Positions 1,751 to 55,366 of a stretch of DNA of 57,013 nt are shown piece after piece. The DNA lies in NCBI RefSeq assembly GCF_004010195.1, contig NC_057719.1, positions 504,389 through 561,401 of the forward strand, written 5' to 3'. Below the pieces are notes generated by a model that saw only the letters and a list, made by a program, of their open reading frames with translations, was not told the DNA's origin and did no database searches. The stretch comes from Chiloscyllium plagiosum. Lineage: Eukaryota. The translations under genes and the position numbers were made by a program. Position 1 is the stretch's first letter; each line of letters opens with the position of its first letter.

Positions 1751-1772
1751 TGAATCATTTCTTCTCTTTCTT

Positions 1773-19200: not shown

Positions 19201-22200
19201 TGTGTGCGAGTGTAGGTTACGAGGCCCTCCTTTGAAGCTTTAGCTGTGGCTTAATGGGTCACTATCTTGATTCCAGATTGGATGTTTGCAAGTTCAACTC
19301 CCTCTCCACAAACCTGACCAGGGATTGGAGGCTGATACTCCTGTTGCAGGACTGAAGGAGTGCTGCACTGCTGAAGGTGTGAGCTGTCTCACGATAGATG
19401 TTAAACTCAAAACCTTTCAGGGCTCTCTTCTGAAGACGAGACAATATTCAACCTTAACCAAGTGAAAACAGAACATCTGCTCATTATCATATGGCCCTTT
19501 GTGGAATTCTATTTAGCAATCACATTTCCTACATTTGAACTCCAAAAAATATTTCACTGGCTGTCACATGCTTTGAGGAGAAAGTGAGGACTGCAGATGC
19601 TGGAGATCAGAACTGAAAATGTGTTGCTGGAAAAGCGCAGCAGGTCAGGCAGCATCCAGGGAACAGGAGAATCGACGTTTCAGGACTAAGCCCTTCTTCA
19701 GGATTCCTGAAGAAGGGCTTATGCCCGAAACGTCGATTCTCCTGTTCCCTGGATGCTGCCTGACCTGCTGCGCTTTTCCAGCAACACATTTTCAGCTCTG
19801 TCACATGCTTTGGACATGCTGAGGTTATCCAAGGTGCCATAACAATGCAAGTTATTTCTGTCCAGTGCATAATCATTTGGCTCTATGTTCGAGGTGATTG
19901 GTGGTAAAGGCATGAACCTGAATTGCTGAGCCGCGCTATTCGGCCCACACAGGGTCCGACATCGGCACACCGGCCGCAATTGTCTCACCTCCCAGTTTCG
20001 GCAGAGCTCTGCCCGCATTTCCTCAACAATCTGCTTCTTCTGAGGGGTTAACATCATTTTGATTTTATCTGTTGCTTCAAGAAAATGTTCAATGATTCCA
20101 GAATCAAAGCTCCTGATTGTTTCCTGTGAGGAACACAATATTAATCAGTCTCCGTTTACTGCCATTACATTGCCATAGCTTTTCAAGGGAGAAAGTTCTA
20201 GATTGTCACTGCCCTTCCTGTGAAGAAATGCTTCCTGATGTCGCCCCTAAACAGCCTGTCTCCATATTGACGGTTCAGTATCCTTGCTCCAGACTCCCTC
20301 TCACCCGAGGCAATACCTTCTCTTGGTCAGCCCAGTCAACTCCTTCAATTGTAGAGTCTATAGAAACATCTTTTGGCCTGAAATTATTCAATCAGACTGC
20401 CTCTTAATCTTCTATATGTGAGGAAATTCAATAAATTCAATAAAAGCTCCCTATTTAAACCCCTTAGTTCCAGAATTTCTAGCACCAATATTTCTCCTCT
20501 GTGGTTGTATGGAGTCGGAACAGAAGGTGCCCAACCTGTGACCCAGCCCATGGCCAATGGAGACCTGCAGGTGAGTGGCTACCTGGTGCTTCACAATGAG
20601 TTCCTCTGGGGACCCTCTGTCCTCGAGAAACTGCATGGCCCCTCCAATGCAGGCTTCTATCCTTCTCTTCGATTCTTCAAAGTCCCGTTTGACATCAACT
20701 TCTGACACTGTGCGCTCACCCACCTGGGCTGGCTCGGCACACGGCACGTCACTGCCCACCTAGGCCAGAGAGACGGAGGGTTAGGCACTGTTTCTCTCAT
20801 TAACACACACACACACACACACAGACACACATACACACACACACACACACACACAGACACACACACACACACACAGACACACAGACACACAATTCATGGA
20901 ACTACAGTTTCAGAGGAATATTCGTGTCATAAAACAAAGGTCAAGAGGACGTTTTATCAAAGTGATCTGAATAATCAGAGGCCATGATTAAGTAAATGTG
21001 GAGAAACACTTCCCAGTGGCAAATGATGGGTAACTCTTGAATATGTTCAAGAAAGAGATTGTTGGTTTTTCGATTTTTAAGGCATCAAGGATACAGAGAG
21101 AAAGCAGGAAGATGGCATTGGGATAGAATATCAGCCATGAATGGCCTACTCTTGCTCATTATTCTGATGTAGCCAGAAGGCACAGATTTAAAGTGACTGG
21201 CCAAAGAACTAGGGGTGAGATGGAATAAAAACCGTGAGTTCTTATGAATTGGAACATACAGGTGGTGGGAGCAGGTTAAATATGAGCTTTCAAATAGGAG
21301 TTTAATTTGTAAGTAAAGAGGAATTGCAATTAGAACATAAGAACTAGGAGCAGGAGTAGGCCGTCTCGTCCTTCGTGCCTGCTCTGCCACCTCAGTAAGA
21401 TCATGGCTGGTCTTTTCGTGGACTCAGATCCATTTATCCACGCTCTTACCATATCTCTTAACTTCTGTAATGTTCTAAAAATATGTTCCTTAGCTTTAAA
21501 AATGTTCACTGAAGTAGGGGCAACTATTTCGCTGGGCAGGGAATTCCACAGAATCACAACCCTCTGGGTGATGAAGTTCCCCCTCAATTCAGTCCTAAAC
21601 CTGCTCCCCCTAACTTTGAGGCTGTGCCCTCTTGTCTTAGTTTCACTCTCCAGTGGAAACATCCTCTCCACTTCTACCTTATCTGTTCCCTTCATAATTT
21701 TATATGTTTGTATAAGATTCCCCCTCATTCTTCTGAATTCCAATGAATATAATCCCAGTCTACGCAGCCTCTCCTCATACGGCAACCCCCTCAACTTCCA
21801 GAACCAACCCAGTGAACCCCCTCTGCACCCCCTCCCGGGCCAGTACATCCTTTCTCAAGTAAGGAGACCAAAACTGCACACAGTACTCCAGGTGTGGCCT
21901 CACCAGCACCCTTAGGGCTGCAACATAACCTCCCTGCTTTTAAACTCCATCCCTTTAGTAATGAAGGACAAAATTCTATTTTCCTTTTCTAATTACTTGT
22001 TGTACCTGCAAACCAACCTTCTGTGATTCATGTACAAAGACACCCAGGTCCCTTTGCACAGCAGCATGTAATTCTAAGGGGAAAGAGAAGTAGGTGAGTG
22101 GAATGACACCTCTTTCAGTATGATCGACTAAACCTCCTCATGAATCAGATTTAAAAGCTATTTGCTTCCCCATCGTCAAACTGGAATGTGCTGCCTGAGA

Positions 22201-25200
22201 GACGCACTCCCTCATGAATGCTGGAGACACTCAGACTGAAGACCAGCCAGAGAGAGTGTCACTGCGAGGCCAGGCCTCTGGATTACTGATGATGAAGCCT
22301 CTGGATTCCCGGCAAAACCTCTGAATTCCCTGTCCAGGACCTGGTGGCATCCTCAGTGCTTGGGAGCCTCCTGTGAAGTGCTTCTGTGGTGTTTCCTCCG
22401 GCATTTATAGTGGCCTGTCCCTGCCGCTTCCGGTTGTCAGTTTCAGCTGTCCGCTGTAGTGGCCGGTATATTGGGTCCAGGTCGATGTGTTTGTTGATGG
22501 AGTTTGTGGATGAGTGCAATGCTTCTAGGAATTCCCTGGCTGTTCTTTGTTTGGCTTGCCCTATAATGGTAGTGTTGTCCCAGTCGAATTCATGTTGCTT
22601 GTCGTCTGCGTGTGTGGCTACTAAGGATAGCTGGTCGTGTCGTTTCGTGGCTAGTTGATGTTCATGGATACGGATTGTTTGCTGTCTTCCTGTTTGTCCT
22701 ATATAGCGTTTTGTGCAGTCCTTGCATGGGATTTTGTACACTACATTAGTTTTGCTCATGAACAACTCACCAGAACGAAGGACCTGATACCCAGCATGAG
22801 CAAAACAAATATAGTGTACAAAATCCCATGCAAGGACTGCACAAAACACTACATAGGACAAACAGGAAGACAGCTAATGATCCGTATCCATGAACATCAA
22901 CTAGCCACGAAACGCCACGACCAGCTATCCTTAGTAGCCACACACGCAGACGACAAGCAACATGAATTCGACTGGGACAACACTACCATTATAGGGCAAG
23001 CCAAACAAAGAACAGCCAGGGAATTCTGAGAAGCATGGCACTCATCCACAAACTCCATCAACAAACACATCCACCTGGACCCAATATACCGGCCACTACA
23101 GCGGACAGCTGAAACTGACAACCGGAAGCGGCAGGGACAGGCCACTATAAATGCCGGAGGAAACACCACAGAAGTGGTTCACAGGAGGCTCCCAAGCACT
23201 GAGAGTGTCACTGCGAGGCCAGGCCTCTGGATTACTGATGATCAAGCCTCTGGATTCCCAGCAAAACCTCTGAATTCCCTGTCCAGGACCTGGGTTCCTG
23301 GCCCCTGCCTCTGGTGGGGAAATGGTCATCATTATACCTGATTTTAATTCCAGATTTTTGTTGGATTTGAATGTTGCCTTCTGCCAGGGTAGGATTACCA
23401 TCTCTATCCCTAAACTGTTTGGCTGGGATTCATTAGTGCAGGAACATTTCCACGACTCCACCAAACACAGAGCGATTCAGTCCCCAGGTGGGGATGGAAT
23501 TACCTGGTGCCCATCAAGAAGGGACTGCACGTGGGAGCTGTCCATTCCCTGATGGACCTCACACTCCTGAAGAGCTGCGTTGAATTTATTCTGCTCCACC
23601 TCAAACTTCATCCGATGAAGATGCGCATCCACCAATGATTGCACGTTCTGAAAAACAAACCAAAACCTGCCTCAATATCACTCTTACCAGAAACAGGCCA
23701 ATCCATGAACCTTTGAGGAGAAAGTGAGGTCTGCAGATGCTGGAGATCAGAGCTGAAAAATGTGTTACTGGAAAAGCGCAGCAGGTCAGGCAGCATCCAG
23801 GGAACAGGAGAATCGACGTTTCGGGCATAAGCCCTTCTTCAGAAGAAGGGCTTATGCCCGAAACGTCGATTCTCCTGTTCCCTGGATGCTGCCTGACCTG
23901 CTGCGCTTTTCCAGCAACACATTTCCAATCCATGAACTGCCTCACTCACACCTTCTTCAATGAACTGCATCAACATAGCTTTCTCTCCCTTTCTCCCACA
24001 GGGACTTAGCCAACTCCTCCTTAAACACATCTTTGCTGTTCATTGTAACCATTCCCAGTGGTAACTAGCTCCACATTCTTCCAATTCTCAGGATAAAGAC
24101 ATGTCTCATGAATTCGCAGCTGAATTTACTGGGATTGCCTTACACTTCTGGACCCCAGTTTTGTCTTCCCTTCCCAATGAGAACACTTCCTATGCATCTA
24201 CCTCATTGAACCTTCGCACAATTCTTAAATCCTCCTCAGCATTCTCTTTTCTTGAGAGAAGAGCCCCAGCCTGCTGAGGCTCTCCTCATAATTATATTAG
24301 GATGGGTTTCATTTTTTAAAATCTTGGTTTGCAAAGTCTCCAATGCGTCTGTATCTTTTTATAACATGGAATATGGAACTGTGCACAGTGCCCCATGGAT
24401 GGCCTATAAACAAGATCCTCGTTTTTATTCTCCCTCTCTTGATCTTCCATTAAAGTTTTGCAAATATTTTGCCTTCAAGCTGCATCCTCGCCATCACATC
24501 CTTTGTGTGTGAGTGTAGATTACCAGGCCCTCCCTTGAGGCTTTAGCTGTGGCTCAATAGGTCACTCTCTTGATTCTGAATTGAACGTTTGCAGGTTCAA
24601 CTCCCTCTCCACAAACCTGACCGGGAATTCAAGGCTGATGTTCCCGATGCTGTACTGCTGAAGGTGTAAGCTGTCTCACGATAGTTGTTAAACTTAAAAA
24701 CCTTCAGGGCTCTCTTTTGAAGAAGAGGGAATATTCACCCTTTACCAAGTGAAAACAGAACATCTGCTCATAATCACATTGCCCTTTGTGGAATCCTACT
24801 GTGTACAAATTAGCATCACATTTCCTACATTTGAACTTCAAAAAATACTTCATTGGCGTGGCCACTGTTGGAATATTGCGTGCAATTCTGGTCTCCTTCC
24901 TATCGGAAAGATGTTGTGAAGGGTTCAGAAAAGATTTACAAGGATGTTGCCAGGGTTGGAGGATTTGAGCTACAGGGAGAAGCCGAACAGGCTGGGACTG
25001 TTTTCCCTGGAGCGTCGGAGGCTGAGGGGTGACCTCATAGAGATTTACCAAATTATGAATCGCATGGATAGGGTAGATAGACAAAGTCTTTTCCCTGGGG
25101 TCGGGGAGTCCAGAACTAGAGGGCATAGGTTTAGGGTGAGGGGGGAAAGATATAAAAGAGACCTAAGGGGCAATGTTTTCACGCAGAGGGTGGTATGTGT

Positions 25201-28200
25201 ATGGCATCAGCTGCCAGAGGAAGTCATGGAGGCTGGTGCAATTGCAACATTTAAGAGGCATTTGGATGGGTGTATGAATAGGAAGGGTTTGGAGGGATAT
25301 GGGCCGGGTGCTGGCAAGTGGGACTAGATTGGGTTGGGATATCTGATCAGCATGGACGGATTGGACAGAAGGGTCTGTTTCCATGCTGTACATCTCTATG
25401 ATTCTATGACATGCTTTGGACATGCTGAGGTTATCCAAGGCGCCATAACAATGCAAGTTATTTCTGTCCAGTGAATAATCAGTTGGCTCTATGTTTGAGG
25501 TGATTGGTGGTAAAGGCGTGAACCTGAATTGCTGAGCCGCGCTATTCGGTCCACACAGGGTCCGACATCGGCACACCGGCCGCAATTGTCTCACCTCCCA
25601 GTTTCGGCAGAGCTCTGCCCGCATTTCCTCAACAATCTGCTTCTTCTGAGGGGTTAACACCATTGTGATTTTATCTGTTGCTTCAAGAAAATGTTCAATG
25701 ATTCCAGAATCAAAGCTCCTGATTGTTTCCTGTGAGGAACACAATATTAATCAGTCTCTGTTTACTGCCATTACATTGCCATAGCTTTTCAAGGGAGAAA
25801 GTTCTAGATTGTCACTGCCCTTCCTGTGAAGAAATGCTTCCTGATGTCGCCCCTAAACAGCCTGTCTCCATATTGACGGTTCAGTATCCTTGCTCCAGAC
25901 TCCCTCTCACCCGAGGCAATACCTTCTCTTGGTCAGCCCAGTCAACTCCTTCAATTGTAGAGTCTATAGGAACATCTTTTGGCCTGAAATTATTCAATCA
26001 GACTGCCTCTTAATCTTCTATATGTGAGGAAATACAATAAATGAATCCTCTGCTCCCTATTTAAACCCCTTAGTTCCAGAATTTCCAGCACCAATATTTC
26101 TCCTCTGTGGTTGTATGGAGTCGGAACAGAAGGTGCCCAACCTGTGACCCAGCCCATGGCCAATGGAGACCTGCAGGTGAGTGGCTACCTGGTGCTTCAC
26201 AATGAGTTCCTCTGGGGACCCTCTGTCCTCGAGGAACTGCATGGCCCCTCCAATGCAAGCTTCTATCCTTCTCTTCGATTCTTCAAAGTCCCGTTTGACA
26301 TCAACTTCTGACACCGTGCGCTCACTCACCTGGGCTGGCTCGGCACACGGCACGTCACTGCCCACCTAGGCCAGAGAGACGGAGGGTTAGGCACTGCTTC
26401 TCTCATTAACACACACACACACACACACACAGACACACACACACAGACACACACACACACACACTCTCTTTCTCTATCTCTCTCTCTCTCTCTCTCTCCA
26501 GGATCTACAATTTCAGAGGGATGTTAGTGTCTTAAAACAAAGGTCAAGAGGACGTTTCATCAAAGTGATCTGAATCATGAGAGGCCGTGATTAAGTAAAT
26601 GTGGAGAAACACTTCCCAGTGGCAAACGATGGGTAACTGTTGAACATGTTCAAGGAAGATTTATTTTTTCATGTTTTAAGGCATCAAGGATACAGAGAGA
26701 AAGCAGGAGGATGGCATTGGGATAGAATATCAGCCGTGAAGGGCCTACTCTTGCTCATTATTCTGATGTAGCCAGAAGGCACAGATTTAAAGTGACTGGC
26801 CAAAGAACTAGGGGTGAGATGGAATAAAAACTGTGAGTTCTTATGAATTGGAACATACAGGTGGTGGGAGCAGGTTAAATATGAGCTTCAAATAGGAGTT
26901 TAATTTGTTTGTAAAAAGGAATCACAATTCTAAGGAGAAAGAAAAGTAAATGAGTGGATTGACACCTCTTTCAGTATGATCGACTAAACCTCCTCGTGAA
27001 TCAGATTTAAAAGCTATTTGCTTCCATCGTCAAACTGGAATGTGCTGCCTGAGGGACGCAGTCCTCATGAATGCTGGAGACACTCAGACTGAAGACCAGC
27101 CAGAGAGAGAGTCCCTTATGTTACTGCTAGACTAGGTGTCTCGAATACTGCTGATTCAGCCACTGGATTACCAGTGCCAGCCTCTGGATTCCCTCTACCA
27201 CGTTGTGGATTGCCGGGTCAGGAACAATGTTTCAAAGAACAGTCACATTGAACTCAAAATATTAACTCTGCTTCTCGCTCCACAGATGTTGCAAGACCTG
27301 ATGAGTTTCATCAACATTTTCCTGGACCAACTCTGGATTTCTGGAGCAGTCATAGAGTCATGGAGATGTACAGCACGGAAACAGACCCTTCAGTCCAACC
27401 TGTCCATGCCAACCAGATATCCCAATCTAATCTAGTCCCATTTGCCAGCACCCAGCCCATATCCTTCCAAACCTTTCCTATTCATATATCCATCCAGATG
27501 CCTTTTAAATGTTGTAATTGTACCAGCCTCCACCACTTCCTCTGGAGCTCATTCCATTCACGTACCACCTTCTGTGTGAAAAAGTTGTCCCTTAGGTCCC
27601 TTTTATATCTTCCCCTCTCACTCTGAACCTATGCCCTCTAGTTCTGGACTCCCCCACCCCAAGTAAAATACCTTATCTATTTACCCTATCCATGCCCCTC
27701 ATGATTTTATAAACCTCTATAAGGTCACCCACTATCCCATCTACCTGCGATTCCACTTTCAAGGAGCTATGAATCTGCACTCCAAGGTCTCTTTGTTCAG
27801 CAACACTCCCTAGTTCCTTACCATTAAGTATATAAGTCCTGCTCTGATTTGCTTTTCCAAAATACAGTACCTCACGTTTATGTAAATTAAACTCCATCTG
27901 CCACTCCACAGTCCTTTGGCGCATCTGTTGTACTTTGAGGTAACCTTCTTCACTGTCCGCTACACCTCCAATTTTGGTGTCATTTGCAAACGTACTAACT
28001 ATACCTCCTATGTTCAAATCCAAATCATTTATAAAAATGAAAAGTAGCATTCCACTGGTCCCAAGCCTCCAGTCTAAAAAGCTACCCTCCACCACCACCC
28101 TCTATCTCCTACCATCGAGCCAGTTCTTTATCCAAATGGTTAGTACCCCCTGTTTTACCTGCAGTCTATGAGACTGGACAGAGGAAACCATAAAAAAGAC

Positions 28201-31200
28201 CTAGAATGATCAAAGAGACAATTGAAAATTTTTGTAAAGATACTGATATCTGAAAATCATCACAGAGTCAATAGGAAAAATTGATTATCTGGTTACCAAA
28301 CATGGAGACTCTGTCTGCTTCTTTGTGTCCTCGGCTGCTGCGTGTTCCTTAGAATAGTGCAGGAACTGTGAGATGTACGTTATTATTGACTTCTCATCAG
28401 GATTGCTGACAGCAATATCTGAGGAAAGAAAACCACTGCATCAAAGTGATAATAACATAAACCCCTAAACCCTTCATTATATAAACCCAATACCTTCACT
28501 GTGTAACCCCACAATCCTTTCTTTATACCAACCCAAATATCTTCACATACAAAAGCCCAAACCCTTCATCACATAACCCCCAAACCCTTTGTGATATAAA
28601 CCCCCAAATGCTTCATTACATAAACCCAAAATCCCTTCCTTATATAATCTCCCAGGTTCTTCATTATATAAATCTCCAATCCCTTAATATGTGAACAGTC
28701 AACCCCTTGATTATATAAACCCGAGTCACTTCATTATATAAACCTCCAGATCTGGATCAGATAAAGGAAAGAAACACGTGATTATATAAAACCCTAAACC
28801 CTCACCCAAATCGCTCATGGTGAAATCCTCCAAACCTAACAATTTATAAACATAATAAGCTTCAATTATATAAATAATTGATCAGATAAACTCCTGCACC
28901 TCTGAATTACATAACCGTCAAACCTGTCAATTACCTTTCTGTGTATAACTCGCTCCTGGATATCTGTTATTCTACATATAACCCTCCAAAACCCCCAATT
29001 AAATTCCAGTCTTGGCTTTCTATTATTTCACCTGTAAACTGCCCAAACCTAACTACTTTCCTCTCTTCCAATCTTTCTTCCTTCTTTCCCTCCTTGCCTC
29101 ACAGACGTTGGCCCTGACTCCTCTGTCTGACCCAGTTCTCACCCTGTGCTTCCAGCAGTCTGGGGATTTTCAGCTCCTGCTCTGCAACCTTGAAAACCAT
29201 TTCCAGGTTCTCCGTGTCTGACCTCTGCTTGAGCTCCGCCAGGTCCAGTAGGCCGGGTCGGAGAGCATTGATAATGGCAACAAAAGCCAGGCCATTTCTC
29301 CAACTGGTGCTGAAATCTCGGATAACGAATCCCAGGTCCCTGAAAGAGAGTATCTGTCATTTTTGTATCATGCATATCATATATTTGAAAGGGAGGATGT
29401 TCCTGATGGTGGATGTGTCCAGACCCAGGGGTCCCAGTCTGAGGATTTGGAGTGAGCCAATTAGGACAGAGATAAGGAGACATTTTTTCACCCAAAGAGC
29501 CTATGGTGAGCCTATGGAAGTCATTACCACAGGAAGTAGTTGATGTCAAAACATTGAATATATTCAAGCGGTGGCTAGATATAGCACTTGGGGTGAATGG
29601 GACCAAAGGTTATGGGGAGAAAGCAGCATTAGGCTATTGAGTTGGATGATCAGCCATGATGGTGATGAACGGTGAAGCAGACTCAAAGGGCTGAATAGCC
29701 TCCTCCTGATTCTATCTCCTATGTTTCGGTGTTTTTATATTCACAGAGCTGGGGAGGAACAGGTTTGGGGATTGGGAACTAAGTCGATAGCTCTTTCAAA
29801 GACTCAGCACCAGTATGAGGGGGCGAATGGCCTTCCTCCATATTACTGTAACTCCATGTGGGAATTGAACAATGATCCTTAACCATGAGCTCCTTACTCT
29901 GTCTTTTCCTGAACCCACTGCAGTAAAGTTGTTTCTGCTGACTTTTTCCGTCCTGCATGGATCAGTGTTTCCTCTCTCTGTGGAGATAATGCTGCTGGTG
30001 AGGAATTCAAAGCAGGTGAAGGCTCCATGGGGGTCTGTCTCAATGTGAGTCCACTGGCAAGTTTCTCAACCTGTTCAGAAAGATAACAAAATCAGGAGAG
30101 TCCTGGAAAGAGTAGATAGAGAAACTGTTCCAAATGGCAGAAGGATCAAGAATCAAAAGACACCAATTGACAGACACTGGGAAAAGAACTAAAGGTGACA
30201 TTGCTATAAATTCAGCCAATGGTATTATTGAAAGTCAGATTCCAGGCAGAGAGCTGGATTGACGATGCTGTGACTTTCAGAGGTGTGTTTTGCCCTGGTT
30301 TCTTTTAGAGAGAGATTGGGAGACAGGCGACAAGCAGTCAATGAGAAGATAAACAACTTGCGAAGCCTTGGATGTTTTTTAAAACTGGAACAATAGAAAC
30401 AGCCTGAATGGGTGTGGTCAAGCTCCCAGAGAACCCAGGGATTTTACGTTTAGCTTCGGCAGCTGTTATTGGGTCTCAGCAGGGTTGGAAGGCAATGAAT
30501 CTGTCTCAGCTGTTACATTCTCTCTCTAAGAATTGTCTTTTGATGTTCTTTCCTCCTGGATTGGAGAATGGCATGTGACATAATTTGCTTTCTGAATTTA
30601 CTTTTTTCCAAGGGTGTGTTTATGGGATGTTACTATATTGAATCAGTTATTGTTCAGTAGTAAAAATAACCTATTATTCTGTTAATTTTTCCAGTAGAGT
30701 TAAGTTATTCCAAGCTCTTCTTTCTTTTGTTAAATTTTTACTATGGTGTTTGAATAAATTGTATTTTGTTTAATGTCAAGTAGTTTTTCACCAATCAAAT
30801 CGCATCTGGAACAGAGCACCTCACATTTACCTTTAAGATAAGAAAAGATTCGGGTCTAGTTTACTTTCTTAATATATTTTGAGGGACTCTGATCTGGTCC
30901 ATGATGTTACAACATGGGGTAAGCCCTTCTGCTAATTAAACCAAGCATAGAGAAAAGCTCACCTCGCCTCTTAACCTATTAAAGTATGAGTGACAGAGAA
31001 CTACCCCAAATTTCACTAGTTAAACAAAAAAAATTTTATTCTTTAACTCCAAGAATGAACATTAAATAACTATTCACAACCCTAATCCTCCTTACTCTTT
31101 ACAAAATGTTATCTACCTCCCACTCTATGACAATGCACTGATCGGATAAAGTCCCTATTAAATTTACAAGAAATCAATTTTCAAAACCAGCCAGCAGTGT

Positions 31201-34200
31201 CGTTCCTCCACTGTAGATCTCCCTGGATCACCTTTGGTTTTCTGCTGCACAGATTTTTCATGTATTACAAAAGGTACCTATTAGAGAGACTGTTTTGAAT
31301 AGCAGTCATTCGATGGCAGAAGCTACTCTTTTTTTGGCTAACTGCCCAAAATGCCTGCTTTTATACCCCAAAACATCGGATCATCTCATTGGTTTGATGT
31401 TGCCAAAACAGTAAAATTCAAATTTGACTGGGTTTTTGTATCTTGGGGCATAATCTAAACTAAGAGAAAGTGAGGACTGCAGATGCTGGAGATCAGCTCA
31501 TTCCTGATGAAGGCCTCTTGCCCAAAATGTCTCTTCTCCTGCTCCTCAGATGCTGCCTGACCTGCTGTGCTTTACTAGCACCACACTCTCAGCTCGCATA
31601 ATTTAAACTGATTGGCTAAATTTACATTGTTGTGAAAACAACTCAGTATCTGAGTTACAGTTTAAATATTACATCTTCAAATTGTCAAATACACTTTGCG
31701 CTGCAGTCAGTCACATGACAGGTGCTTGCCAGCTTTTCACCTTTCACTCTCTCTTAAAGGTGAAAATGTGTTGCTGGAAAGGCGCAGCAGGTCAGGCAGC
31801 ATCCAGGGAACAGGAGAATCGACGTTTCGGGCATAAGCCCTTCTTCAGGAAACTCTCTCTTAAAGGTACAGTATATGCCTCCAACTTCATAACAATAACA
31901 ACAGACTATAAGTTTTATTTTTGCAATTTGGTTACTGTGGTGGTCAGTCACTGAACAGTTTCACATGAGGTTACAAATGTACTTTAAACAAAAGAACATC
32001 AAAGTTTACTACACAAAAATGTTTCAAAAATTCAAAGCTATAAAACACAGTTGGGAAAAGGATAATCATAAGCATCAAAAATAAAGACTCAGCCCATTTT
32101 CCAAGTAATATCCTTTATAAGCATTCAACCCAAGTGAAATATCACTTCAACTTTCACTCCTTATTTTCCGACTCAACTGATGAGGTTGCAAACACTTATT
32201 TCAGGTGATTTTCTGAATATTCCCAGATGTGATTCTCTCCATCTCCCCGAAGCTGAACTAAGGGCTGGAGCTAAAGCTTTCTTTTCAGCTCTGATGGTTT
32301 GCCTGGAGACAGTCTGACAGGTTTGGATCTTTACTTCTGAACTTCAGCCTACTTCCAGCTAATAGAACATGCTACTAGTTATGTCTCTAGCTCTCTTACG
32401 GGACTCTCTTGTGATACAGTGGTAATGTCCCCACCCCTGGACTAAGAGACCCAGAGTCAAGTCCCACCTGCTCCAGAGGTGTGTAATAACATTAATGATC
32501 AGGTTTATTAGAAATTATCTTCCTGGGGGGTGTTGACCTCTGGACAGAGAGCTAGGAAGGCTGGAAACAGGATGTTGCAGACAGCTGGCCTGACACAGCA
32601 GGGTGAATGGCCTCCTTCTGAACTGTAATCATTCTATAGTACACAGCGGGCTCCAGCATATAGTCTACAACCTCCACTAGGAACCACACAACAATTGGCT
32701 TTACCCCACATAAACAAACACCTTTAACCATTCTGTACAGAGTCACACAGTTTTTACAGCATCTAAAGAGGCTCTTTGGCCCATTGTGTCCATGCTGGTC
32801 CATGCTAATCCCGCTTTCCTGCTCTTGGTCTGTTGCTTTTTCGTGGCATGGTGTTCCAAATGCTCATGTAAATAGTTCTTCAGTATCTTGAGGATTCCTG
32901 CCTCTACCACCCTTTCAGACAGTGAGTTCCAGGTACCCATAAGCCCTTAGCTGATTTTCTATCTTCAAATCCCTACCATTTCACAAATAATTAGCTGTTC
33001 CCCTGCCCCTCGCCCTCTGGCGTCCCTCCTGTGGCCAGAGAGGGCTTGAAACTTAATGTCACAGCTCCTGCAATCCCACTGCAACCTTGGGTACATTTCA
33101 ATCGGGCCACCTGCATTTATCTATTTTCAAGCCAGTTAATAAAAACTGCTAATACTCTCCATGTACAGGAGGGGTTCACTCTGAGCTGTGAGAAACAACA
33201 TCCCCATTGCAACAAAACCAATGGTAATCCCACCCCCAAACCCAGCGCGTCTCAGTTTCACATTGGGGTAAGGCTATAGCTCACATGTGTGGTTACTGAA
33301 ATGGGAATCTACTGGAATGGGATTTTGGAGTATCCGGTTTCAGGGAGCCGGAGTGTGGAGAATAGTGTAGGGCATTTCTCAGTGCTGGGTGCTCCTTTGG
33401 CAGAGATAACGGTGCAGGTGTAGGAACTGAATCCTTTAAAATGACTCTCTGGCTAAGATTAGCTAGATATTAGTGAAATCAGGTGAGAGTAGTGTTAGAA
33501 TTTCGGAGCTTACGTCCATAGTCACCTAATATAATCAGTCTACCAATCGTAAGGAATTTTCAGGTATCTGAAAGTTTGTTGAGAAGCAGCCATTTAGATA
33601 TGATACATGAGGGAATCCAACAAATAAACATGTAACCCTTGACAGCATGGAGTGCTAACATGTGTGGATCTCATTAAAGTTGTAAAGGCAACATTCTGCT
33701 CTCTCATGGAAATGTCGGGGAACTCTTCCCTGGGTCTTCCCTCCACCTCTGCTGGTCCTCCTTCCAGCTGAAGAAGAACAGCTTCCTGAAGAAGAGTGAC
33801 CATTATAAGGACCGCTTGACAAGGAATGCTTACAGTACAACGACTCTCTGAGTGACATCGGTGAACCAGGTGGGCTTTTAACAATAACCAATTAGATCTT
33901 TGCAACCATCATCACTTTATTGAATATTCCAGATTTATAAATTGAATTTAAATCAGCTATCCCAATGGGATTTGAACCCACATCCTAAGAGCATTAATCA
34001 GAGTACCTGGATCATTAGCCCACTGACATTCCTACTACAGCATCATCTCTTGAGGTGGTGCCAAGAGAGAAAGACAGCCTTTACCCCAAAGAATCTAGTA
34101 AAATACACACCTGGAAATACAATATAATGGACCAAATCAGCCCCAAGATGACGGTAGGATTCCCATCCACAATGTCCAGGACATTAATGTTCACCAACTT

Positions 34201-37200: not shown

Positions 37201-40200
37201 TTTTGGAAAAATGCAAAAGTAGCAGGGTTGTTGTCATGGGTGATTTCAACTTTCCCAATATTGACTGGAACCTACCTAGTGCAGATGGTTTGGATGGAGT
37301 GATTTTTGTCAGGTGTGTTCAGGAGGGTTTCCTGACTCTGTATGTAGACAGGCTGACGAGGGGAGAGGCCATTTTGGATTTGGTGCTCGGCAATGAGCCA
37401 GGACAGGTGTCAGATCTCGCGGTGCGAGAACACTTTGGTGACAGTGACCATAACTGCCTCACATTTACCATAGCCATGGAGAGGGAAAGGAGCAGTGACC
37501 AAGGGAAGATAGTTAATTGGGGAAAAGGAAATTATGATGCTGTCAGACGGAAGTTGGGAAGAACAGATTGGGAACAATTGCTCCACAGAAAGGGCACAGC
37601 AGACATATGGAGACTGTTTAAGGAGCAGTTGTTGCGAGAGATACATAAATTTGTTCCTCTGAGACAGGCAAGAAGGGGTAAGATTAAGGAGCCTTGGATG
37701 ACAAGATCAGAGGAGCTTCTTATCAAAAGGAAGAAGGCAGCTTACGTAAGGTGGAGGAAGCAAGGATCTAGCACAGCTTTAGATAATTACCGGCTTACTA
37801 GAAAGGAGCTCAGAAATAGACTGAGGAGAGCCAGAAGGGAGCATGAAAAAGGCTTGACAGAAAGGATTAGGGAGAACCCAAAGGCATTTTACTCACACGT
37901 GAGGAATAGAGAATGATCAGGGAGAAGGTAGGGCCGATCAGTGATAGCGGAGGGAACTTGTGCGTGGAGTCTGAGCAGATAGGGGAAGCCCTAAATGAGT
38001 TTTTTGCTTTGGTTTTCACTAAGGAAAGGGACCTTGTTGTGAATGAGAATTTGGAGGAGCTGGGAAACAGGCTTGAACAGATCAATATTGATAAAGTTAA
38101 TATGCTGGACATTTTGGCAAACATTAAGATTTTAAGTCCCCAGGGCCAGACCAGATTTATCCTAGGCTGCTCTGAGAAGTGAAAAAAGGAGGTTGCTAAG
38201 CCACTGGCAAAAATCTTTGCTTCCTCACTTTCCATGAGAGTCGTACCAGAGGATTGGAGGAAAATTGTTCCTATTTTCAAGAAGGGGAATATGGAAATCC
38301 GTGACAATTACAGACCAGTAAGTCTTACATCTGTGGTCAGCAAGGTTTTGGAAAGAATTCTGAGGGATAGGATTTATGACTATTTGGCAAGGCATAGCAT
38401 GATTAAAGGCAGTCAGCATGGCTTTGTGAGGGGCAGGTCATGCCTCACAAATCTTATTCAGTTCTTTGAGGAGGTGATGAGACAGGTCGATGAAGGTCGA
38501 GAAATGGATGTGGTGTATATGGATTTCAGCAAAGCACTTGATAAGGTTCCCCATGGTAGGCTCATTCATAAAGTCAGGAAGTATGGGATACAGGGAGATT
38601 TGGCTGTCTGGATTCAGAATTGGTTGGTGGACAGAAGGCAGAGTGTGGTTATAGATGGAAAGTATTCTGCCACACGGCTCTATGCTTGGGCCTCTGCTTT
38701 TGTAGTTTTTATAAATGACTTGGATGAGGAGGTTGAGGGGTGGGTTAGTAAATTTGCTGATGACACAAAGGTTGGAGGTGTCATCGATAGTGTAGAGGGC
38801 TACTGCAGGCTGCAGAGCGACATAGACAGGATGCAGAGCTGGGCTGGGAAATCGCAGATGGAGTTCAGCCTGGATAAATGTGAAGTGATGCATTTTGGAA
38901 GGTCGAACTCGAATGCTGAATATCAGATTAAAGACAGGATTCTTGACAGTGTGGAGGAAAAGAGCGATCTTGGTGTTCAAGTGCATAGATCCCTCAAAGT
39001 TGCCACCCAAGTGGATAGGGTTGTTAAGAAAGCATATGGTGTTTTGGCATTCATTAACAGGGAGATTGAGTTTAAGAGCTGTGAGGTTTTGCTACAGCTC
39101 TACAAGTCCCTGGTGAAACCACACTTGAAATATTGTGTCTTGTTCTGGATGCCCTACAATAGGAAAGATACAGAGGCTTTAGAGAGGGTGCAAAGAAGGT
39201 TTACCAGGATGCTGCCTGGACTGGAGGACTTGCCTTACAAAGAGAGGTTGAATAAGCTCAGACTTTTCTCTCTGGAGAGAAAGAGGTAGACAAGTGACCT
39301 GATCGAGGTATACAAGGTAATGAGAGGCATGGATAGAGTCAATGGCCAGAGACTTTTCCCCAGAGCAGGATTTAAGGTGTTAGGAGCAACGTATAGAGGG
39401 GACAATTGTGGTAGGTTCTTTACGCAGAGAGTTGTGAGTGCATGGAATGCGTTACCAGCGGTGGTGGTGGACGCAGAGTCATTAGGGACATTTAAGTGAC
39501 TGCTGGACATGCACATGGATAGCAGTGAATTGAAGGGTGCGTAGGTTAGGTTATTTTATTTTACATTAGGATTAATCCGCGGCACGACATCATGGGCCAA
39601 AGTGCCTGTTCGGTGCTGTACTTTTCTATGTTCTATGTTATAATTAGGAATCACTGCTTCAAAATTGAGGTACACATTTACATGTTAAATTAAAATTGAG
39701 GAGTGTACATATCTCATTTGGGGATGTGAGAGACTATTGTAATAATTCTTTTCTCGCAGAGTTGTGAGACTTTGGAACTCTCTCTCTGAAAGAGTCCTTG
39801 AACATTTTTAAGGTAGAGGTGGATAGATTCTTGGCAAAAAATAAGGGGTAAAAGGTTATCAGTTGTAGGCAGGAATGCAGATTTGAGGTTACAATCTGCT
39901 CAACTAGGATCTTATTAAAGATGAAGCAGGCTTGAGGGGCCAAGTGGCCCTTTTCCATCTGTTTATTTGTATGCCCAGCAAGCATCTCCTTCCCCTTCAG
40001 TAGTGAGCTCCACATCCTCACCATTCTCTGAGGCAAGGGTTTTCCCAGTTGGATTTATTAGGATCTCTCTTATACTGACAGCCACTAGTTTTGCTCTCCC
40101 TCGGAAATGCCAACCCCCTTGATAATTTTAAAAAGCCTCCTCTTTTCTAAAGAAAAGATCCCCAGCCTGTTCAGTCTCTTCCTGGAAGAAAGTGAGGACT

Positions 40201-43200
40201 GCAGATGTTGGAGAGTTAGAGTTGATAAAGCGTGGCACTGGAGAAAGTACAGCAGGTCAGGCAGCATCAGAGGAGCAGGAGAGTCAACATTTCAGGCATA
40301 AGGCCTTCTTCAGGTCCTGAAGAAGGGTCCTGCCTGAAACATTGACCATCCTGCTCCTCAGATGCTGCTTGACCTGCTGTACTTTCTCCTATCACCTTTA
40401 CTCTATCACCTTTCAGACTCTTCCTGATAGCCGTCACTGTAGATGTGACTGGAATCAGTTGGTGAGGAATGGGAGAGGTTGTTGGATTAAATCTTGAGGA
40501 ATGCAAATGGAGTTGGCAGCCTTAGGTTCAAGCAGGCTGAATGGCCTTTTCATTGGTCTCTGTGTTGTGACCTAGCTCATCACACTAAGGCCTCAGGCTG
40601 ATTAACTCCACCAGTTACTGTATTGCTCAGTTCCTTTCTCACCATCTGTTGTCCTGACAGAACCTCCAGTAAATCCAAGAGTCTGTGTCCATCCCGAAGA
40701 TCCTGGAACAAGTCCTGGATGACAGATGGGGGTTTGTGCTGTTAGGATGGAACAGAAGAATGTTAGTCTGATTCATTTTACACAGCCACACCCCTCCATT
40801 CACTGAGCGGCTCACTGCATAGCACTCTTGCCTCAAGGTATGATGGGACTCAAATCCCACTCCAGAGCCTTGAGTATTTTTTAGTTCATTTGTGGGATGC
40901 TGGTGTCACTGGCAGAGGGCAGTTGCGAGTCAACCACATTGCTATGGTTCAGGAGTCACAAGTAGGTCAGACCAGGGTAAGGATGGCAGATGTTCATTAG
41001 TGAACCAGACAGGGTTTCCCCAACAACCTATGATTGTTTCATGGTCATGTTTTGACTCTTAAGTCCAGATTTTTACTGATTTCAAACTTCACCGTCTGCC
41101 GTGGTAGATTCAAATTTAAAACATTACCTGAGTTTCTGTAATAGACTAGCGATAATACCACTGGCCATCACCTCCTCTATTATAAAACATTAATATACAA
41201 TTGAAAATCTTTTTAGTATCAAACTTGAGGGAGAGAGTGGGAGCTGCACTGTCAAGTGAGATGTTAAACCTCACAGGTGGATCCCGCGGCACCAAGTCCA
41301 CAAAGAGGACTGATTCGCAAGATGACGGTTTTGTTTTATGAAGAGAGATTGAGCAATTCAGACTGAAATTCTCTGGAGTTGAGAAGAATGAGAAAGAGAT
41401 TTAATTGAGGTATAAAAGATGCTAAAGCAGATTGAAGAAAGTAGGCACAGAGGGGACGTTTCCTCATGTGGGGCAATCTAGAACGCGAGGTCATTGTTCA
41501 GGGATAAGGGGAAGCAGATTTAAAACAGAGATGAGAAGAAACTACTCTGTCAAAGGACTGTGAATCTGTGGAAGTGCAGTGGCTGCTGAGACTTCAAGCA
41601 AATTTAAAGAGGAGATTGACAGAAGTTTTAATCAGTAATGAATTGAAGGGTTATGGAGAGAGGGCAGGAAAGTGGAGTTGAGGCCAAGATGAGATCATGA
41701 TTTGGAGGTGCCGGTGTTGGACTGGGGTGAACAAACTTAAAAATCACACAACACCAGGTTATAGTCCAACAGGTTTAATTGGAAGCACTAGCTTTCAGAG
41801 CGCTGCTTCTCCGCAACTACTCGATGAAGGAGCAGCGCTCCGAAAGCTAGTGTTTCCAATTAAACCTGGTGGACTATAACCTGGTGTTGTGTGATTTTTA
41901 AAGATGAGATCAGGCATGAGCGGGATTGAGGGGCTGAATTGCCCACACCTACTCCTGGTTCTTATGTTGTTGTGTTCTCCATAGCTTCCCCAGCCGATAT
42001 ATATCAATCAACCAATATCATTAATGTAAGTGATCTCCTCATTGCCTGTTTACTGTGTAGAGGCTGGATGATGTATGTCCTGTGTTACAGCAGGAAGTAC
42101 ACCTCAACAGTATCTCACTGGGACTTTGGAATGTTCCAAGTTTGTGGCGCTATAGAAATGCATCTGAAATTTGCGTCATCCCTTAACTCTTACCTTTGCT
42201 AGTTGTGCGTTGACCCAGTTTGTGAAAGTCCGGTTTTGAACCTTTTCATGTTCAGCTGTAAAATGTAAGATATGCGCAGTTATAAAAGCATTCTGACACC
42301 CTCCCAGCTCATCGAAGTAACAGCAAGGACAAGGTGAACTGTGTTCAAGGGTATGGAAAGAAGGGAAGGTAGAAATTACAGGGTGTTGACATGGTGGGGG
42401 AGCCAGGAGACTGGAGAAACATTCATTATGGCCTTGTACATAAAGGCTATAAAGATAAATCCAGTAATTACAAACCGGTCATTTAACTTCAATGGTGTTT
42501 GAACATCTAGAAACAACAATTTGTGTTAAAATTAGTAGTCACATGGAGAAGACAAGGTGGTTAAGAAGAGTCAGCATGGATTTCTAAAGAGGAAATTGTG
42601 TTTAACTTGCTGGACCTTTTTTGAAGTTATGAGGGCAATGATGCTGATGCGGTGTACAGTGTACAGTGACTTTCAAAAGGCATTATTCATATTTATATCA
42701 TTCTCTCACAGAATGTGGACCATTTTCTGAACAAAAAAGGCTTCGGAAATCTGAAGATTTGGAAATCCTCTTTCTCTTAGGGTTAACGTGTAGGTTCAGT
42801 TGGCAGTTAGAAAGGTAAGTGCAATGTTAGCATTCATTTCAACAGGGCTAGAATACAAGAGCAGAGATGCCCTGCTGGGGCTGTATAAGGCTCTGGTCAG
42901 ATCACAATTGGAATATTGTGAGCAGTTTGGGCCCCTTATCTAAGGAAGGATTTGCTGGTGTTGGAGAGGTCCAGAGGAGGTTCCCAAGAGTGATCCCAGT
43001 GATGAAGGGCTTGTCATATGAGAAGTGGTTGAGGTCTTTGGGTCTGTACTCGGGATCAAGTTTAGAAAGATAAGGAGGGTTCTGATTGAAACTTCCAGAA
43101 TACTGAGAGGCCTAGATAGAGTGGATGTGGAGAAGATGTTTCCACTAGCAGCAGAGAATAGGACCAAAGGGCATAGCCTGAGAGTGAATGGACAGCCCTT

Positions 43201-45979: not shown

Positions 45980-46259
45980 GGTGTCAAGAGTGGAGCTGAG
46001 ATTGAGGGTTGAAGATCTGTATGGAAGTACAGCTATTTAAAGAGGAACAGAGGAACGTTCAGAGCTGCTGAAAGCTGCTGAAATGTCGTAGAAAAACAGC
46101 AAAGAAGTAAGTCCTAGCTGAAAACACTTTGTGAGTCTTCCTCCCCTGGTGCTGGTCGAAATGAAAGGTTATATGGAACGCTGTTTTCTACATACAATGG
46201 TAAAACCATGACAGGGACACGAGGGATGTTGAGGTGGGGGAAACATGTGTGAATACTCT

Positions 46260-48292
46260 CGGGCAGGTCAACATAATGAAGAAGGAAGTGTCAGAGGTAT
46301 TGTAATGGATTAACATAGAAAAGACCCCAGAATCAGATGGGATCCATCCCAGGAAACTGTGGGAGGCAGTAGCTGGGTCCTGAACAGATATTAGATTAGA
46401 TTACTTACAGTGTGGAAACAGGCCCTTCGGCCCAACAAGTCCACACCAAACCTCAGAAGCACAACCCACCCAGACCCATGCCCCTACATTTACCTCTTCA
46501 CCGAACACTACAGGCAATTTAGCATGGCCAATTCACCTAACCTGCACATTTTTGGACTGTGGGAGGAAACCCACGCAGACACGGGGAGAATGTGCAAACG
46601 CCATATGGTCAGTCACCTGAGGTGGGAATTGAACTCAGGTCTCTGGCGCTGTGAGGCAGCAGTGCTAACCACTGTGCCACTGTGCCGACCATATCTTTGC
46701 ATTCTGTCTGGCTTCAGATGAGGTTCCAGACAATTGGAAAATGATCAATGTTGTTCCTTTTTTTTAAGAGGCACCTGAGGTGGGAATTGAACTCAGGTCT
46801 CTGGCGCTGTGTGCCGACCATATCTTTGCATTCTGTCTGGCTTCAGATGAGGTTCCAGACAATTGGAAAATGATCAATGTTGTTCCTTTTTTTTAAGAGG
46901 AAAACAGAGATAATCCAGGTAATTACAAGTCAGTGAGCCTGACATTAGTGGAGGGAAGACTTTGGAGAAGATAATGAAAGACAGGATTTATTCACATTTG
47001 GAAATGAATGGAATTGTTAATGATAGGCAACATGGGTTTGTGTGGGAAAGGTCATGTCTCACCAATTTGATTGAGTTTTTTCAGGTGACAAGAATGATTG
47101 ATGTGGGAAGGGCGGTGGATGTTGTCTACATGGACTTTAGTAAGGTATTTGATAAGGTACCTCATGGAAGTCTGGTATAACAGGTAGAGTCTCGTGGGAC
47201 CTGGAGTGAGCTGGCTGGATGGATATATAAATGGCTTCATCATAGAAGACAGAGAATAGTAGTGGAAGTGTGCTTTTCTGAATGGAAATTAGTAACTAGT
47301 GTTGTTCCACAGGAATCAGGGCTGGGACCTTTGATGTATGTAATATATTAAATGATCTGGAGGAAAATGAAAGTGATCTGCTTACTAAGTTTGTAGATGA
47401 CATCAAAATTATCAAAGCTGCAGACAGTGAGGAAGGTTGTCAAATGATACTGCGGGATACAGATGGATTGCAGACTTGAGCAGAGAAATGGCTAATGGAA
47501 TTTAATCCAGACATCCAGATCCAGGAAGATCAAATGCAGGTGTGAATTATACAATAATGGCAGAACGCTCAGGAGCATTGATATACAGAGGGATCTGGGT
47601 GAACAGGTCCACAGATCCCTGAACATGGCAACACAGGAGGATATCGTGGTCAAGAGGGCACACAGCACAATTGCCTTCATTGACCAGGGTATTGAATTTA
47701 AAAGTTGGCAAGTTATGTTACAACTGTATAAAACCTTAGTTAGGCCACATTTAGAATATTACATGCAGTTCTGATCACCACACAAGAGGACATGGATGCT
47801 TTGGAGAGGGTGCAGTGAAGGTTTACCAGGATGTTGCCTGGTCTGGGGGGTTTTAGCTATGAGGAGAGTTTGGAATAACTCAGATTGCTTTCACTGGAAA
47901 GGCAGAGGCTGAGGAATGACTTACTCGAGGTCTACAAATTATGAGAGGCATAGGTAGGGTCGATAGTCAGAAGCTTTTTCTCAGGGTGCAAAAATCAACT
48001 ACAAAAGGGCACAGGTTCAAGGTGAGAGGTTTAGGGGAAAAGTGCAGGGCAAACTTTTCACCCAGAGGGTGGTGGTTACCCGGAACACACTGCCAGTGAA
48101 GGTGGGGGAAGCAGGCATGTTAGCAAAGTTTAAGGAGTATCTTGATAGACACATGAACGGGAGGTGAATAGAGGGATAGAAACTGTTTATGGGGCAATAA
48201 GTAGTGAATCTACAAATGTATTAGGAATCAATGCAGGCTGTGTTGGGCCGAAGAGCCTGTGTCTGTGTTGTATTGTATTGGATTGTATTGAA
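46260..48292 (+). mobile_element. Decayed CR1 ORF2 RT region with nested HE1 SINE (46393-46688, minus)
   Basis: RQHGF, YMDFSK, DKVPH motifs; ttgta-repeat tail. Confidence 0.88.
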
Positions 48293-49599
48293 TGAACATT
48301 GCCAAGCTGAGAGACCTGGCTCCTGATTGTGAGCTTTGTGACTATTCCTTCCAGTGTCCTACAGCGTTTTCTGAAAGGAGTAATCAGTGTCCCACAGAGA
48401 TCACATGTAGCAACATTGAAAGATCGAAAATAGGAGCAGCATTCAGCCCTTTGAGCCTACTCTGCATTCAATGTGATCGTGGGTGAACTCAGTACCCTGT
48501 TCCCAATTTCTCATCACAGCATTCCATCCCTTTAGCCCTATGAACTACATCTAACACCTTCCTGAAAACATTCAATGTTTTGGCCTCAACCGCTTTCTGT
48601 GGCAGAGAATTCCACAGGGTCCCCATTATCTCCAGAGTTTGGTGTTAGCAGGGATTTAGAGCAGTCATGTCTGTCCTAGATGCTCCTCAAGCCTGACACT
48701 TTCTTGAATCTCACGAGGGGCCTCAGCAACTGCTGGACTCTCCCTGTCACCAGGTGCTGAACGCTCCTGGGTTTAAATAATCATCACAACTATGAAGTCA
48801 CAAGTCACTAAACGTGGCCAGAAACACCCTCTTCCCACAATATGCAGTGAAAATTTGGAATTGTGTGACTGAAACATAAAGCTTCTGTGATGGATGGGAA
48901 TCCTGCAAAACTAAGATCCCAAGATTTTTGAAAGGCAAGGCTATTTTTGGTTTACAGAACGAACTCAGGTGTATTGAGTTAGAATAAAAAATAGTCTTGG
49001 TTTAATGGACTTGAGGGGCTGAATGGCCTCCTTTGTTTCCAGCCTCTGTCAGTGCACACAGATCCTGAGATGTTTACTGACAAACAGCAGAATCTCTGAG
49101 TGGATTATGCAACGATTATATTACTGGGTTAGATGCTGAGGCTATTAACAATTTCAAATCCCACTGTGAGAAATTTGAGAATTTTAATTAAAATAAAAGT
49201 CTAGGTAAATCATGAAGCAGTTGCATTGTTGTAAGAATACATTTGGTTTAATAATACCCTCTTGGGATATGTGGTCATCCTCCAGCCTCCATGCCAACTG
49301 TCTTCTGAAGTAACCTGGCGTGTCACAGTGACACCCACATCCAAGTAAAATAAAGGCAGACAAGTTCCCTGCTTAGGACAGTGCTAAACATAACCCCCTA
49401 CCCATCCCATTGCTCACATTCTACACCAGACAGTAAACAGCAATGAGTATAATCGGTAAGGACAAGGACAGATGGAGAGAAGTAGGTCAGAGCACAAAGA
49501 CATCGTTGTTATCAGCTCTGTAGGATGAATCCTCAGACACAACACAAGATGGTGATGTGTGCCTCAGCCTTGCACTCCACTGGAGCAGACTAAACCAAT

Positions 49600-49793
49600 G
49601 AGGTAAAAACAATGATTGCAGATGCTGGAAACCAGATTCTGGATCAGTGGTGCTGGAAGAGCACAGCAATTCAGGCAGCATCCGAGGACAGGCAAAATCG
49701 ATGTTTCGGGCAAAAGCCCTTTTGCCCGAAACATCGATTTTGCTGCTCGTCGGATGCTGCCTGAATTGCTGTGCTCTTCCAGCACCACTGATC
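49600..49793. mobile_element. Palindromic Penelope-derived insertion, third subfamily
   Basis: TSD cagactaaaccaat; inverted arms centred on gggcaaaagcccttttgccc. Confidence 0.75.
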
Positions 49794-54452: not shown

Positions 54453-55366
54453 AGATGGATGCAGATGGAAGCTGATGGAAGCTGATGGAAGCAGTTGGAA
54501 GCAGATGGATGCAGATGGAAGCTGATGGAAGCAGCTGGAAGCTGATGGATGCAGATGGAAGCAGATGGAAGCAGATGGAAGCTGATGGAAGCTGATGGAA
54601 GTAGATGGAAGCAGATGGAAGCTGATGGAAGCTGATGGAAGCTGATGGAAGCTGATGGAAGTAGATGGAAGCAGATGGAAGCTGATGGAAGTAGATGGAA
54701 GTAGATGGAAGCTGATGGAAGCTGATGGAAGCAGATGGAAGCTGAGGGAAGCTGATGGAAGTGGATGGAAGCAGATGGAAGCTGAAGGAAGCTGATGGAA
54801 TAAGATGGAAGCAGATGGAATCAGATGGATGCAGATGGAAGCTGATGGAAGCTGATGGAAGCAGATGGAAGCAGAAGGAAGAAGATGGATGCAGATGGAA
54901 GCTGATGGAAGCTGATGGAAGCAGATGGAAGCAGATGGAAGCTGATGGAAGCTGATGGTTGCAGATGGAAGCAGATGGATGCAGATGAAAGCTAATGGAT
55001 GCAGATGGAAGCTGATGGAAGCAGATGGATGCAGATGGAAGCAGATGGAAGCTGATGGAAGCTGATGGAAGCTGATGGAAGCAGATGGAAGCAGATGGAA
55101 GCAGATGGAAGCTGATGGAAGCTGATGGAAGCTGATGGAAGTAGATGGAAGTAGATGGAAGCTGATGGAAGCAGATGGAAGTAGATGGAAGCAGATGGAA
55201 GCTGATGGAAGTAGATGGAAGTAGATGGAAGCTGATGGACGCTAATGGAAGCAGATGGAAGCAGATGGAAGCAGATGGATGCAGATGGAAGCTGATGGAA
55301 ACTGATGGAAGTAGATGGAAGTAGATGGAAGCTGATGGAAGCTGATGGAAGCTGATGGAAGCAGAT
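54453..55366. repeat. 10-bp tandem satellite (GCTGATGGAA/GCAGATGGAA/GTAGATGGAA)
   Basis: About 90 units in strict 10-bp register, running into the gap. Confidence 0.98.

Follow-up and report, generated by a model that had tools for sequence, protein, structure and literature searches.

Endonuclease-bearing (EN+) Penelope-like elements (PLEs) are known to insert as head-to-head inverted pseudo-long terminal repeats (pLTRs) with palindromic junctions, an optional tail of 30-40 bp and a short target-site duplication (TSD) of variable length, and also occur as solo pLTRs (PMC3846280, PMC8557442); the inverted arrangement has been called typical of PLEs (PMC8557442). Their minimal hammerhead ribozymes have no helix III, are palindromic at positions 15.2-16.2, and show an extra base after A9, a G10.1-C11.1 pair and a short helix I; most are single, probably from truncated PLEs, and some form pairs on opposite strands (PMC4209133). 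For PAc, a Poseidon element of Anolis, two internal reverse transcriptase (RT) start sites downstream of the hammerhead bracket the 30-40-nt tail, and the protein, modelled as a dimer, nicks and extends both strands (PMC11167929). How the inverted pLTR and the one-sided tail are formed is still called undefined (PMC8557442, PMC11167929). Here we describe a set of short inserts in a 57,013-nt stretch of the Chiloscyllium plagiosum genome (NC_057719.1, positions 504,389 to 561,401; hereafter the window, numbered from its first letter) that display four features of PLE pLTR insertion, namely a minimal hammerhead, a one-sided tail, a head-to-head inverted copy and a variable short TSD. The inserts are very probably insertion products of EN+ PLEs that lack an open reading frame (ORF) and contain the terminal pLTR module only.

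An earlier sequence-only reading of the window had listed seven such inserts of 90-230 bp, belonging to about three sequence families and each flanked by a TSD of 12-16 bp. All seven were found at the starts given, between direct repeats, with sizes of 90-227 bp and TSDs of 12-16 bp (one mismatch each at 31462 and 40185), and sequence comparison confirmed three families, A, B and C. By comparison, 32 of 20,000 random segments were framed by a 12-nt repeat when at most one mismatch and 5 nt of slack were allowed. Five of the seven inserts are palindromic, the insert at 31762 is a single arm, and that at 31462 consists of an inverted tail and one arm. Family A comprises the young inserts at 19576, 23711 and 31762 and the older ones at 31462 and 40185; family B, at 49600, is 73-81% identical to family A, and family C, at 41698, matches neither. 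An arm contains a minimal hammerhead followed by about 85-90 nt to a near end and, optionally, by a further tail of about 35-45 nt. In the following, end coordinates are given relative to C3 of the hammerhead core (position 0), with the cleavage site falling after +27.

The palindrome at 19576-19797 (TSD 19561-19575/19798-19812, 15 bp) joins an antisense left arm with tail (C3 at 19701, 5' end at -2 as taken by eye from the alignment, outer end at +125) to a sense right arm (C3 at 19707, 5' end -4, outer end +90), with a central overlap of 1 nt. The palindrome at 23711-23924 (TSD 23698-23710/23925-23937, 13 bp) likewise overlaps by 1 nt, its tail-bearing left arm running from 0 to +131 and its right arm from +2 to +84. 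In the older family A palindrome at 40185-40411 (TSD 40170-40184/40412-40426, 15 bp), the 5' ends lie at -1 on the left and -2 on the right with no overlap, and both arms have private variants in common; its right arm finishes in a short tandem-duplicated stretch (40389-40411) that has no match in the parent sequence and possibly reflects slippage at priming. The family C palindrome at 41698-41900 (TSD 41686-41697/41901-41912, 12 bp), with stem III AGCT and a CUA triplet, has 5' ends at about +7 on the left and +2 on the right, the latter being the first base of the core match, which 12 unattributed central nucleotides could shift to about -10. The family B palindrome at 49600-49793 (TSD 49586-49599/49794-49807, 14 bp) is centred on stem II, with 5' ends at +6 and +11, an overlap of 3 nt, and a core-breaking G-to-A change common to both arms. 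The single family A arm at 31762-31851 (minus strand; TSD 31746-31761/31852-31867, 16 bp) extends from -3 to +86 without a tail and has an intact core with C3 at 31848. Finally, the insert at 31462-31595 (TSD 31448-31461/31596-31609, 14 bp) consists of an inverted tail (31462-31496, 35 nt) and a sense arm from -7 to +91, which abut in the order of the parent sequence with 1 nt of overlap. At three junctions there is microhomology of 3-5 nt with the TSD.

A tandem segmental duplication within the window (18236-22331 versus 23322-27194, 85-94% identical, with copy-specific insertions) provides an empty paralogous site for one of these inserts. The site corresponding to 23711 (18623-18635, plus strand) holds a single copy of the TSD with one mismatch, which places both arms of the palindrome within one TSD pair. 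The duplicate of the 19576 site is also free of the insert but carries a long interspersed element (LINE) within about 3 nt (24858-25402), the two duplicate copies having received two independent insertions at one spot. A whole-window profile search yielded an eighth locus, an older family A arm at 1092-1178 (minus strand, +1 to about +87), around which no TSD was found and which is joined head-to-head to ORF-like scraps at 1180-1266 and 1598-1750. The same search returned three older, diverged pLTR-like relics (3545-3662, 4797-4975 and 27228-27345, the second with a 42-nt insertion in loop II), which were not counted, their ends being unclear.

The window was scanned with a minimal hammerhead descriptor (CTGAnGA, a stem of at least 4 pairs, GAAA, a pairable dinucleotide and UH), as the sequence-only reading had proposed. 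Five intact cores were found, compared with 0.015 per window in 200 shuffles, and 8 of the 13 arms at the eight loci lack an intact core. In the right arm of 19576, the core at 19707-19734 (plus strand) consists of CTGAAGA, an extra A, a 4-bp stem II and GAAA-CG-TC, with cleavage expected after 19734. The family A core ends in GAAA-CG-TC and that of family C in GAAA-GC-TA, both palindromic at stem III (ACGT and AGCT, respectively), and in both families an extra base follows A9 and stem II begins with a G-C pair. Together with the variable TSDs, these features bear out the PLE origin that had been proposed for the inserts as retrotransposed pieces with minimal type I hammerheads. An Rfam search returned no hammerhead match and no matching model, with sub-threshold matches to microRNA (miRNA) and small nucleolar RNA models only, and when seven arms were folded, every z-score was -1.4 or higher. 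The hammerhead came out as the structure of lowest energy in a single case, the minus strand of 19576, in which the inversion junction provides a 6-bp helix I; this junction-made helix (19669-19708, minus strand) is better than that of the parent sequence, and the strand adopts the hammerhead fold on its own.

Across the 13 arms, the 5' ends fall at -7, -4, -3, -2, -2, -1, 0, +1, +2, +2, +6, +7 and +11. Eight of these were called automatically; the end-caller stopped early on four arms with clustered substitutions, and the ends of these arms (19576 left, 31462, 40185 right and 41698 left) were taken from alignments, with the right arm of 41698 set at the start of the core match. With one 5' end per locus, the eight loci span 13 nt, for which P is about 2e-5 under a crude uniform null from -30 to +60. 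All 13 arms reach past the cleavage site on its upstream side, by 17-35 nt, and none ends at it. The outer ends form two clusters, at +79 to +91 (seven of the eight near ends, that of 40185 being ambiguous) and at +119 to +131 (all five tail-bearing palindrome arms), such that one arm is longer by 35-47 nt in the four palindromes in which both can be measured. The tail-less arm reaches further upstream in three of the five palindromes (19576, 40185 and 41698), and in all five both arms belong to one family. The inversion centre, which had been placed at or within the hammerhead motif, does lie at or near it, just upstream of C3 in 19576 and 40185, at C3/G5 in 23711, and in the core or stem II in 41698 and 49600; it falls at the front of the motif, however, and in no case at the GUC/CUA site. 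Although the inserts at 19576, 23711 and 31762 have arms that are 95-100% identical, their centres and ends differ, and the mirror half was therefore made at each insertion.

These ends suggest how such inserts could arise. The GIY-YIG nuclease would nick both target strands 12-16 nt apart, one target 3' end would prime reverse transcription at a far start site (about +120 to +130), yielding the tail, and the other would prime at a near site (about +80 to +90). Both cDNAs would then run to the 5' end of an uncleaved RNA, a few bases before the hammerhead core. A single cDNA would leave a single arm, as in 31762; a far cDNA halting at the near primer would leave an abutting tail and arm, as in 31462; and a far cDNA that displaced the near one, or copied the second RNA of a dimer, would leave two arms end to end with 0-3 nt of overlap, that is, a palindrome. 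Either the 5' pLTR within a full transcript or a short transcript of the pLTR alone could be the template, and the data fit both. The hammerhead would mark the boundary by its position and not by cutting. The abutment of tail and arm in 31462 with one base in common leads us to infer two primed cDNAs that ran to the end of the RNA and were then joined, and priming at two sites is favoured since the two clusters of outer ends match the two PAc start sites that bracket the tail, those here lying about 30 nt nearer to the core (PMC11167929). PAc also uses uncleaved RNA as its substrate, with no RNA reads at the cleavage site (PMC11167929), as the proposed scheme would have it. Taken as a whole, this explanation is probable, and the chances of the particular route, by two nicks, two priming sites and joined cDNAs, we put at about even. 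A stricter form is put forward tentatively: a dimeric RT-nuclease would carry out programmed twin priming on one uncleaved RNA, always at the same two sites, and the 5' end of that RNA would precede helix I.

Several other origins were weighed against this scheme. The sequence-only reading had seen in the inserts self-replicating, non-autonomous ribozyme units, mobilized by PLE enzymes, whose inversion centre depends on the cleaved RNA end or on stem II. Such units would fit the presence of minimal hammerhead motifs in all three families, the clustering of ends at the motif and the number of matching contigs, some 10^5 per run. Cleavage after +27, however, would strip the core from the RNA together with the upstream piece, which is discarded, and as all arms retain the core, a ribozyme-defined RNA end is not supported. 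Nor is fold-back at stem II supported as the route in general: of the palindromes, 49600 alone is centred there, and 41698 loosely so, the loops implied are 0-2 nt, and the tail-less arm extends further upstream in three of the five palindromes. That near-identical arms differ in centre and ends also speaks against the palindrome as the replicating unit, whose whole transcript should fold as one long hairpin. No head-to-tail arrays occur in the window, and PAc insertion in vitro proceeds without hammerhead cleavage (PMC11167929). Within this window the model is largely refuted, and we regard it as very unlikely. The sequence-only reading is therefore partly supported, in that its link to PLEs holds and its mechanism does not. 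Self-priming, in which the cDNA (or an antisense template, as for A. vaga) snaps back near the hammerhead and copies itself while the nuclease resolves the second end at the near site, appears unlikely, though less so. It agrees with arms that are always of one family with private variants in common, with the centring of 49600 on stem II with its 3-nt overlap, and with the self-priming proposed for PLE junction palindromes (PMC3846280). The loops it implies would nevertheless be 0-2 nt in four of five palindromes. A snap-back would also have to begin in the tail-bearing arm, where its loop would remain, which is at odds with the three palindromes whose tail-less arm runs further upstream, and it leaves unexplained the insert at 31462, where tail and arm abut without duplication.

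Compatible with the favoured scheme, and possible though doubtful, is a dedicated template resembling the RNA of a short interspersed element (SINE), about 135 nt long with its own promoter before the hammerhead; palindromes would still arise at insertion, and the family would then be truly non-autonomous. At all eight loci of families A-C in the window the element sequence ends at the core, and abundance is very high in three organisms. The internal initiator and downstream promoter element (Inr/DPE) of D. virilis Penelope offers a precedent (PMC2377424); its start, however, lies about 120 nt upstream of helix I (PMC2377424, PMC4209133). The sequence TCATTC at -6 to -1 fits the initiator consensus, but the match is short and lies in pyrimidine-rich sequence, both 31462 and the read consensus described below reach past the predicted +1, and RNA reads fall on both strands, as in read-through. 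An origin as miniature inverted-repeat transposable elements (MITEs) of a DNA transposon, or by inverted duplication at the DNA level after insertion, has the size and hairpin shape in its favour, and long palindromes can arise by replication errors. Symmetric terminal inverted repeats with a TSD of fixed length would have been expected of the former; the TSDs of 12-16 bp are not fixed, the ends are asymmetric by the tail, no DNA-transposon signature was seen, a single-arm copy has its own TSD, and the empty site puts both arms of 23711 in one TSD pair. Variable TSDs and the one-sided tail refute the MITE reading, the whole unit including its centre is not copied between loci, and we consider either origin extremely improbable.

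Other candidates were also rejected. ARAGORN, which misses decayed heads, found no tRNA genes, and the inserts have no A-rich or repeat tail, contrary to a tRNA-derived SINE. A 3' splice site as the boundary does not agree with family A, which has no AG directly before helix I; two older relics do have an AG two bases before the core, resembling a splice acceptor. RT stalling at the ribozyme fold was dismissed as the cause of the ends because these lie upstream of the stems and not 3' of them, and a non-LTR retrozyme was set aside as the window contains no head-to-tail hammerhead array.

In order to place these inserts beyond the window, four of 24 listed sequencing runs were aligned to 31400-31900. 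Matches were obtained for 109,201 of 23.6 million contigs in X1, 68,269 of 35.3 million in X9 and 63,196 of 20.1 million in X14, and for 3,606 of 13.0 million RNA reads in X21; the numbers, of order 10^5 contigs per run in three related organisms, are matching contigs or reads and not copy numbers, and X1 possibly stems from the very sample behind the window. A sharp tail end at 31464 (1,079 contigs in X1, 848 reads in X21) was a top boundary in all four runs. Loose ends before the core (792 contigs, 521 reads) agree over about 5 letters, TGAGG on the plus strand, as in the lead-in of 31462. Beyond these letters, their agreement (0.33-0.35 for contigs, 0.49 for reads) equals that of unique flanks (0.35-0.36 and 0.47) and lies below that of contiguous element sequence (0.56-0.58). 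This pattern speaks for a shared boundary no more than about 10 nt from the core. Among the 15 of 780 joints listed, all were tail-to-arm, with counts for X1 and X14 incomplete. RNA reads were found on both strands (mean depth 925 versus 641 in one bin). One poly(A) single-cell library, of a type that shows RNA ends poorly, had no flagged accumulation of such ends and was not used as evidence.

A number of observations weigh against the favoured scheme. In family A the helix I formed naturally is weak, with 2 pairs, a mismatch and 1 pair; four of the 13 ends were set by eye; where two arms differ by 1-2 nt, later erosion could be the cause; and the private variants common to both arms in 40185 and 49600 also fit fold-back or gene conversion. 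The clustering rests on eight loci, seven of them picked for shortness by the sequence-only reading, and the relics left out include one that seemingly runs upstream. Mixed subfamilies would give a similarly low agreement of loose ends, the consensus of RNA reads before the core is coherent for 30 letters, so that a good part of the copies extends beyond this boundary, and no strand switch at the core was seen among the 15 of 780 joints listed. An autonomous partner sharing the end of family A, B or C, which the sequence-only reading had proposed to look for, was sought, and no RT/GIY-YIG element of this kind was confirmed. The ORF scraps at 1178-1270 and 1598-1750 beside the 1092 arm had no match in homology searches, and the GIY-YIG piece that was confirmed in the window (22345-23200) belongs to another family.

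The motifs of the scraps beside the 1092 arm suggest a Neptune-type PLE, an identity that no search confirmed. The region 1092-3660 as a whole comprises the inverted family A arm, the scraps and an older pLTR-like end, broken by nested SINE and LINE copies, and may represent a single old PLE insertion or a chimera made from two families. A peptide translated from a family A arm had no longer homologue, no ORF starting in a family A hammerhead was found, and DNA pattern scans gave no matches in viral_contigs, metagenome_contigs or genome_contigs; a protein-profile scan of metagenomes returned two identical distant loci without an inverted repeat. The piece at 22345-23200 is an 856-bp head-to-head fold-back of the GIY-YIG-coding 3' end of a separate PLE family, flanked by a 93-bp direct repeat (Pfam GIY-YIG E 0.03; homologues with RT), and is 82-91% identical to RT-bearing or related proteins of Chiloscyllium punctatum and Hemiscyllium ocellatum, in keeping with a host among the bamboo or carpet sharks. 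On both sides this piece stops within its own hammerhead-like core and not downstream of it; given these ends and the 93-bp direct repeat, it does not follow the rule of the stubs. It is not the partner of families A-C, and shows that PLE fold-backs occur in the window. Elsewhere, LINE fragments abound in the window, as seen from Pfam matches to RT and endonuclease, and it contains a 2,690-codon stop-free frame (8174-16246, minus strand) with about five internal repeats spaced 1179-1227 bp and no convincing Pfam family, probably a giant host exon, and a 10-bp satellite of 91 copies (54453-55366) that runs into a 500-N gap (55367-55866).

Tailed pLTRs inverted head-to-head have been described for PLEs before (PMC3846280, PMC8557442, PMC11167929), and the elements are not a new class; the 5' boundary and the clue to twin priming are testable additions. 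In contrast to the EN+ PLE insertions described, the whole insert here is two pLTR stubs without an ORF, the 5' ends cluster before the hammerhead, and matches number about 10^5 contigs per run. The TSDs are 12-16 bp compared with 8-10 bp in A. vaga PLEs (PMC3846280), opposite-strand hammerheads touch instead of lying 100-700 bp apart, and stem II has 4-5 bp, unlike that of the minimal hammerheads in a survey of metazoan PLEs, the available text of which does not name sharks (PMC4209133). The PAc study gives no account of how inverted copies arise (PMC11167929). Animal non-LTR retrozymes are similarly non-coding, with type I hammerheads derived from PLE pLTRs, and occur in a chondrichthyan, but they are head-to-tail tandem repeats, whereas the stubs are single or head-to-head (bioRxiv 10.64898/2026.07.22.740005). 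In D. virilis Penelope, an intron that ends at helix I (PMC4209133) and the internal promoter (PMC2377424) are precedents for a boundary at this position, and neither fits family A cleanly. No report of ORF-less inverted pLTR doublets in sharks or of PLE twin priming was found in the literature searched, with Repbase/Dfam, subscription journals and supplements outside the search.

In L1 twin priming, a second nick primes internally on the same RNA, and the inverted piece abuts the first within one TSD. The pattern of 31462 resembles this, although L1 inversions have no sequence duplication and no fixed second priming site, unlike the stubs. The inserts mimic MITEs and miRNA hairpins in annotation and are a possible source of double-stranded RNA. 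As 100-230 bp suffice to display the two priming sites together with the TSD and the RNA-proximal end, and the inserts exist in great numbers, counting junctions in one assembly can separate the snap-back, two-RNA and twin-priming models. If twin priming holds, whether the RT stops at the near-primed cDNA or displaces it would decide between a tail-only inversion and a full palindrome. One rule would then cover the tail, the inverted pLTRs and the solo stubs of PLEs, and shark genomes would hold about 10^5 natural products as test material.

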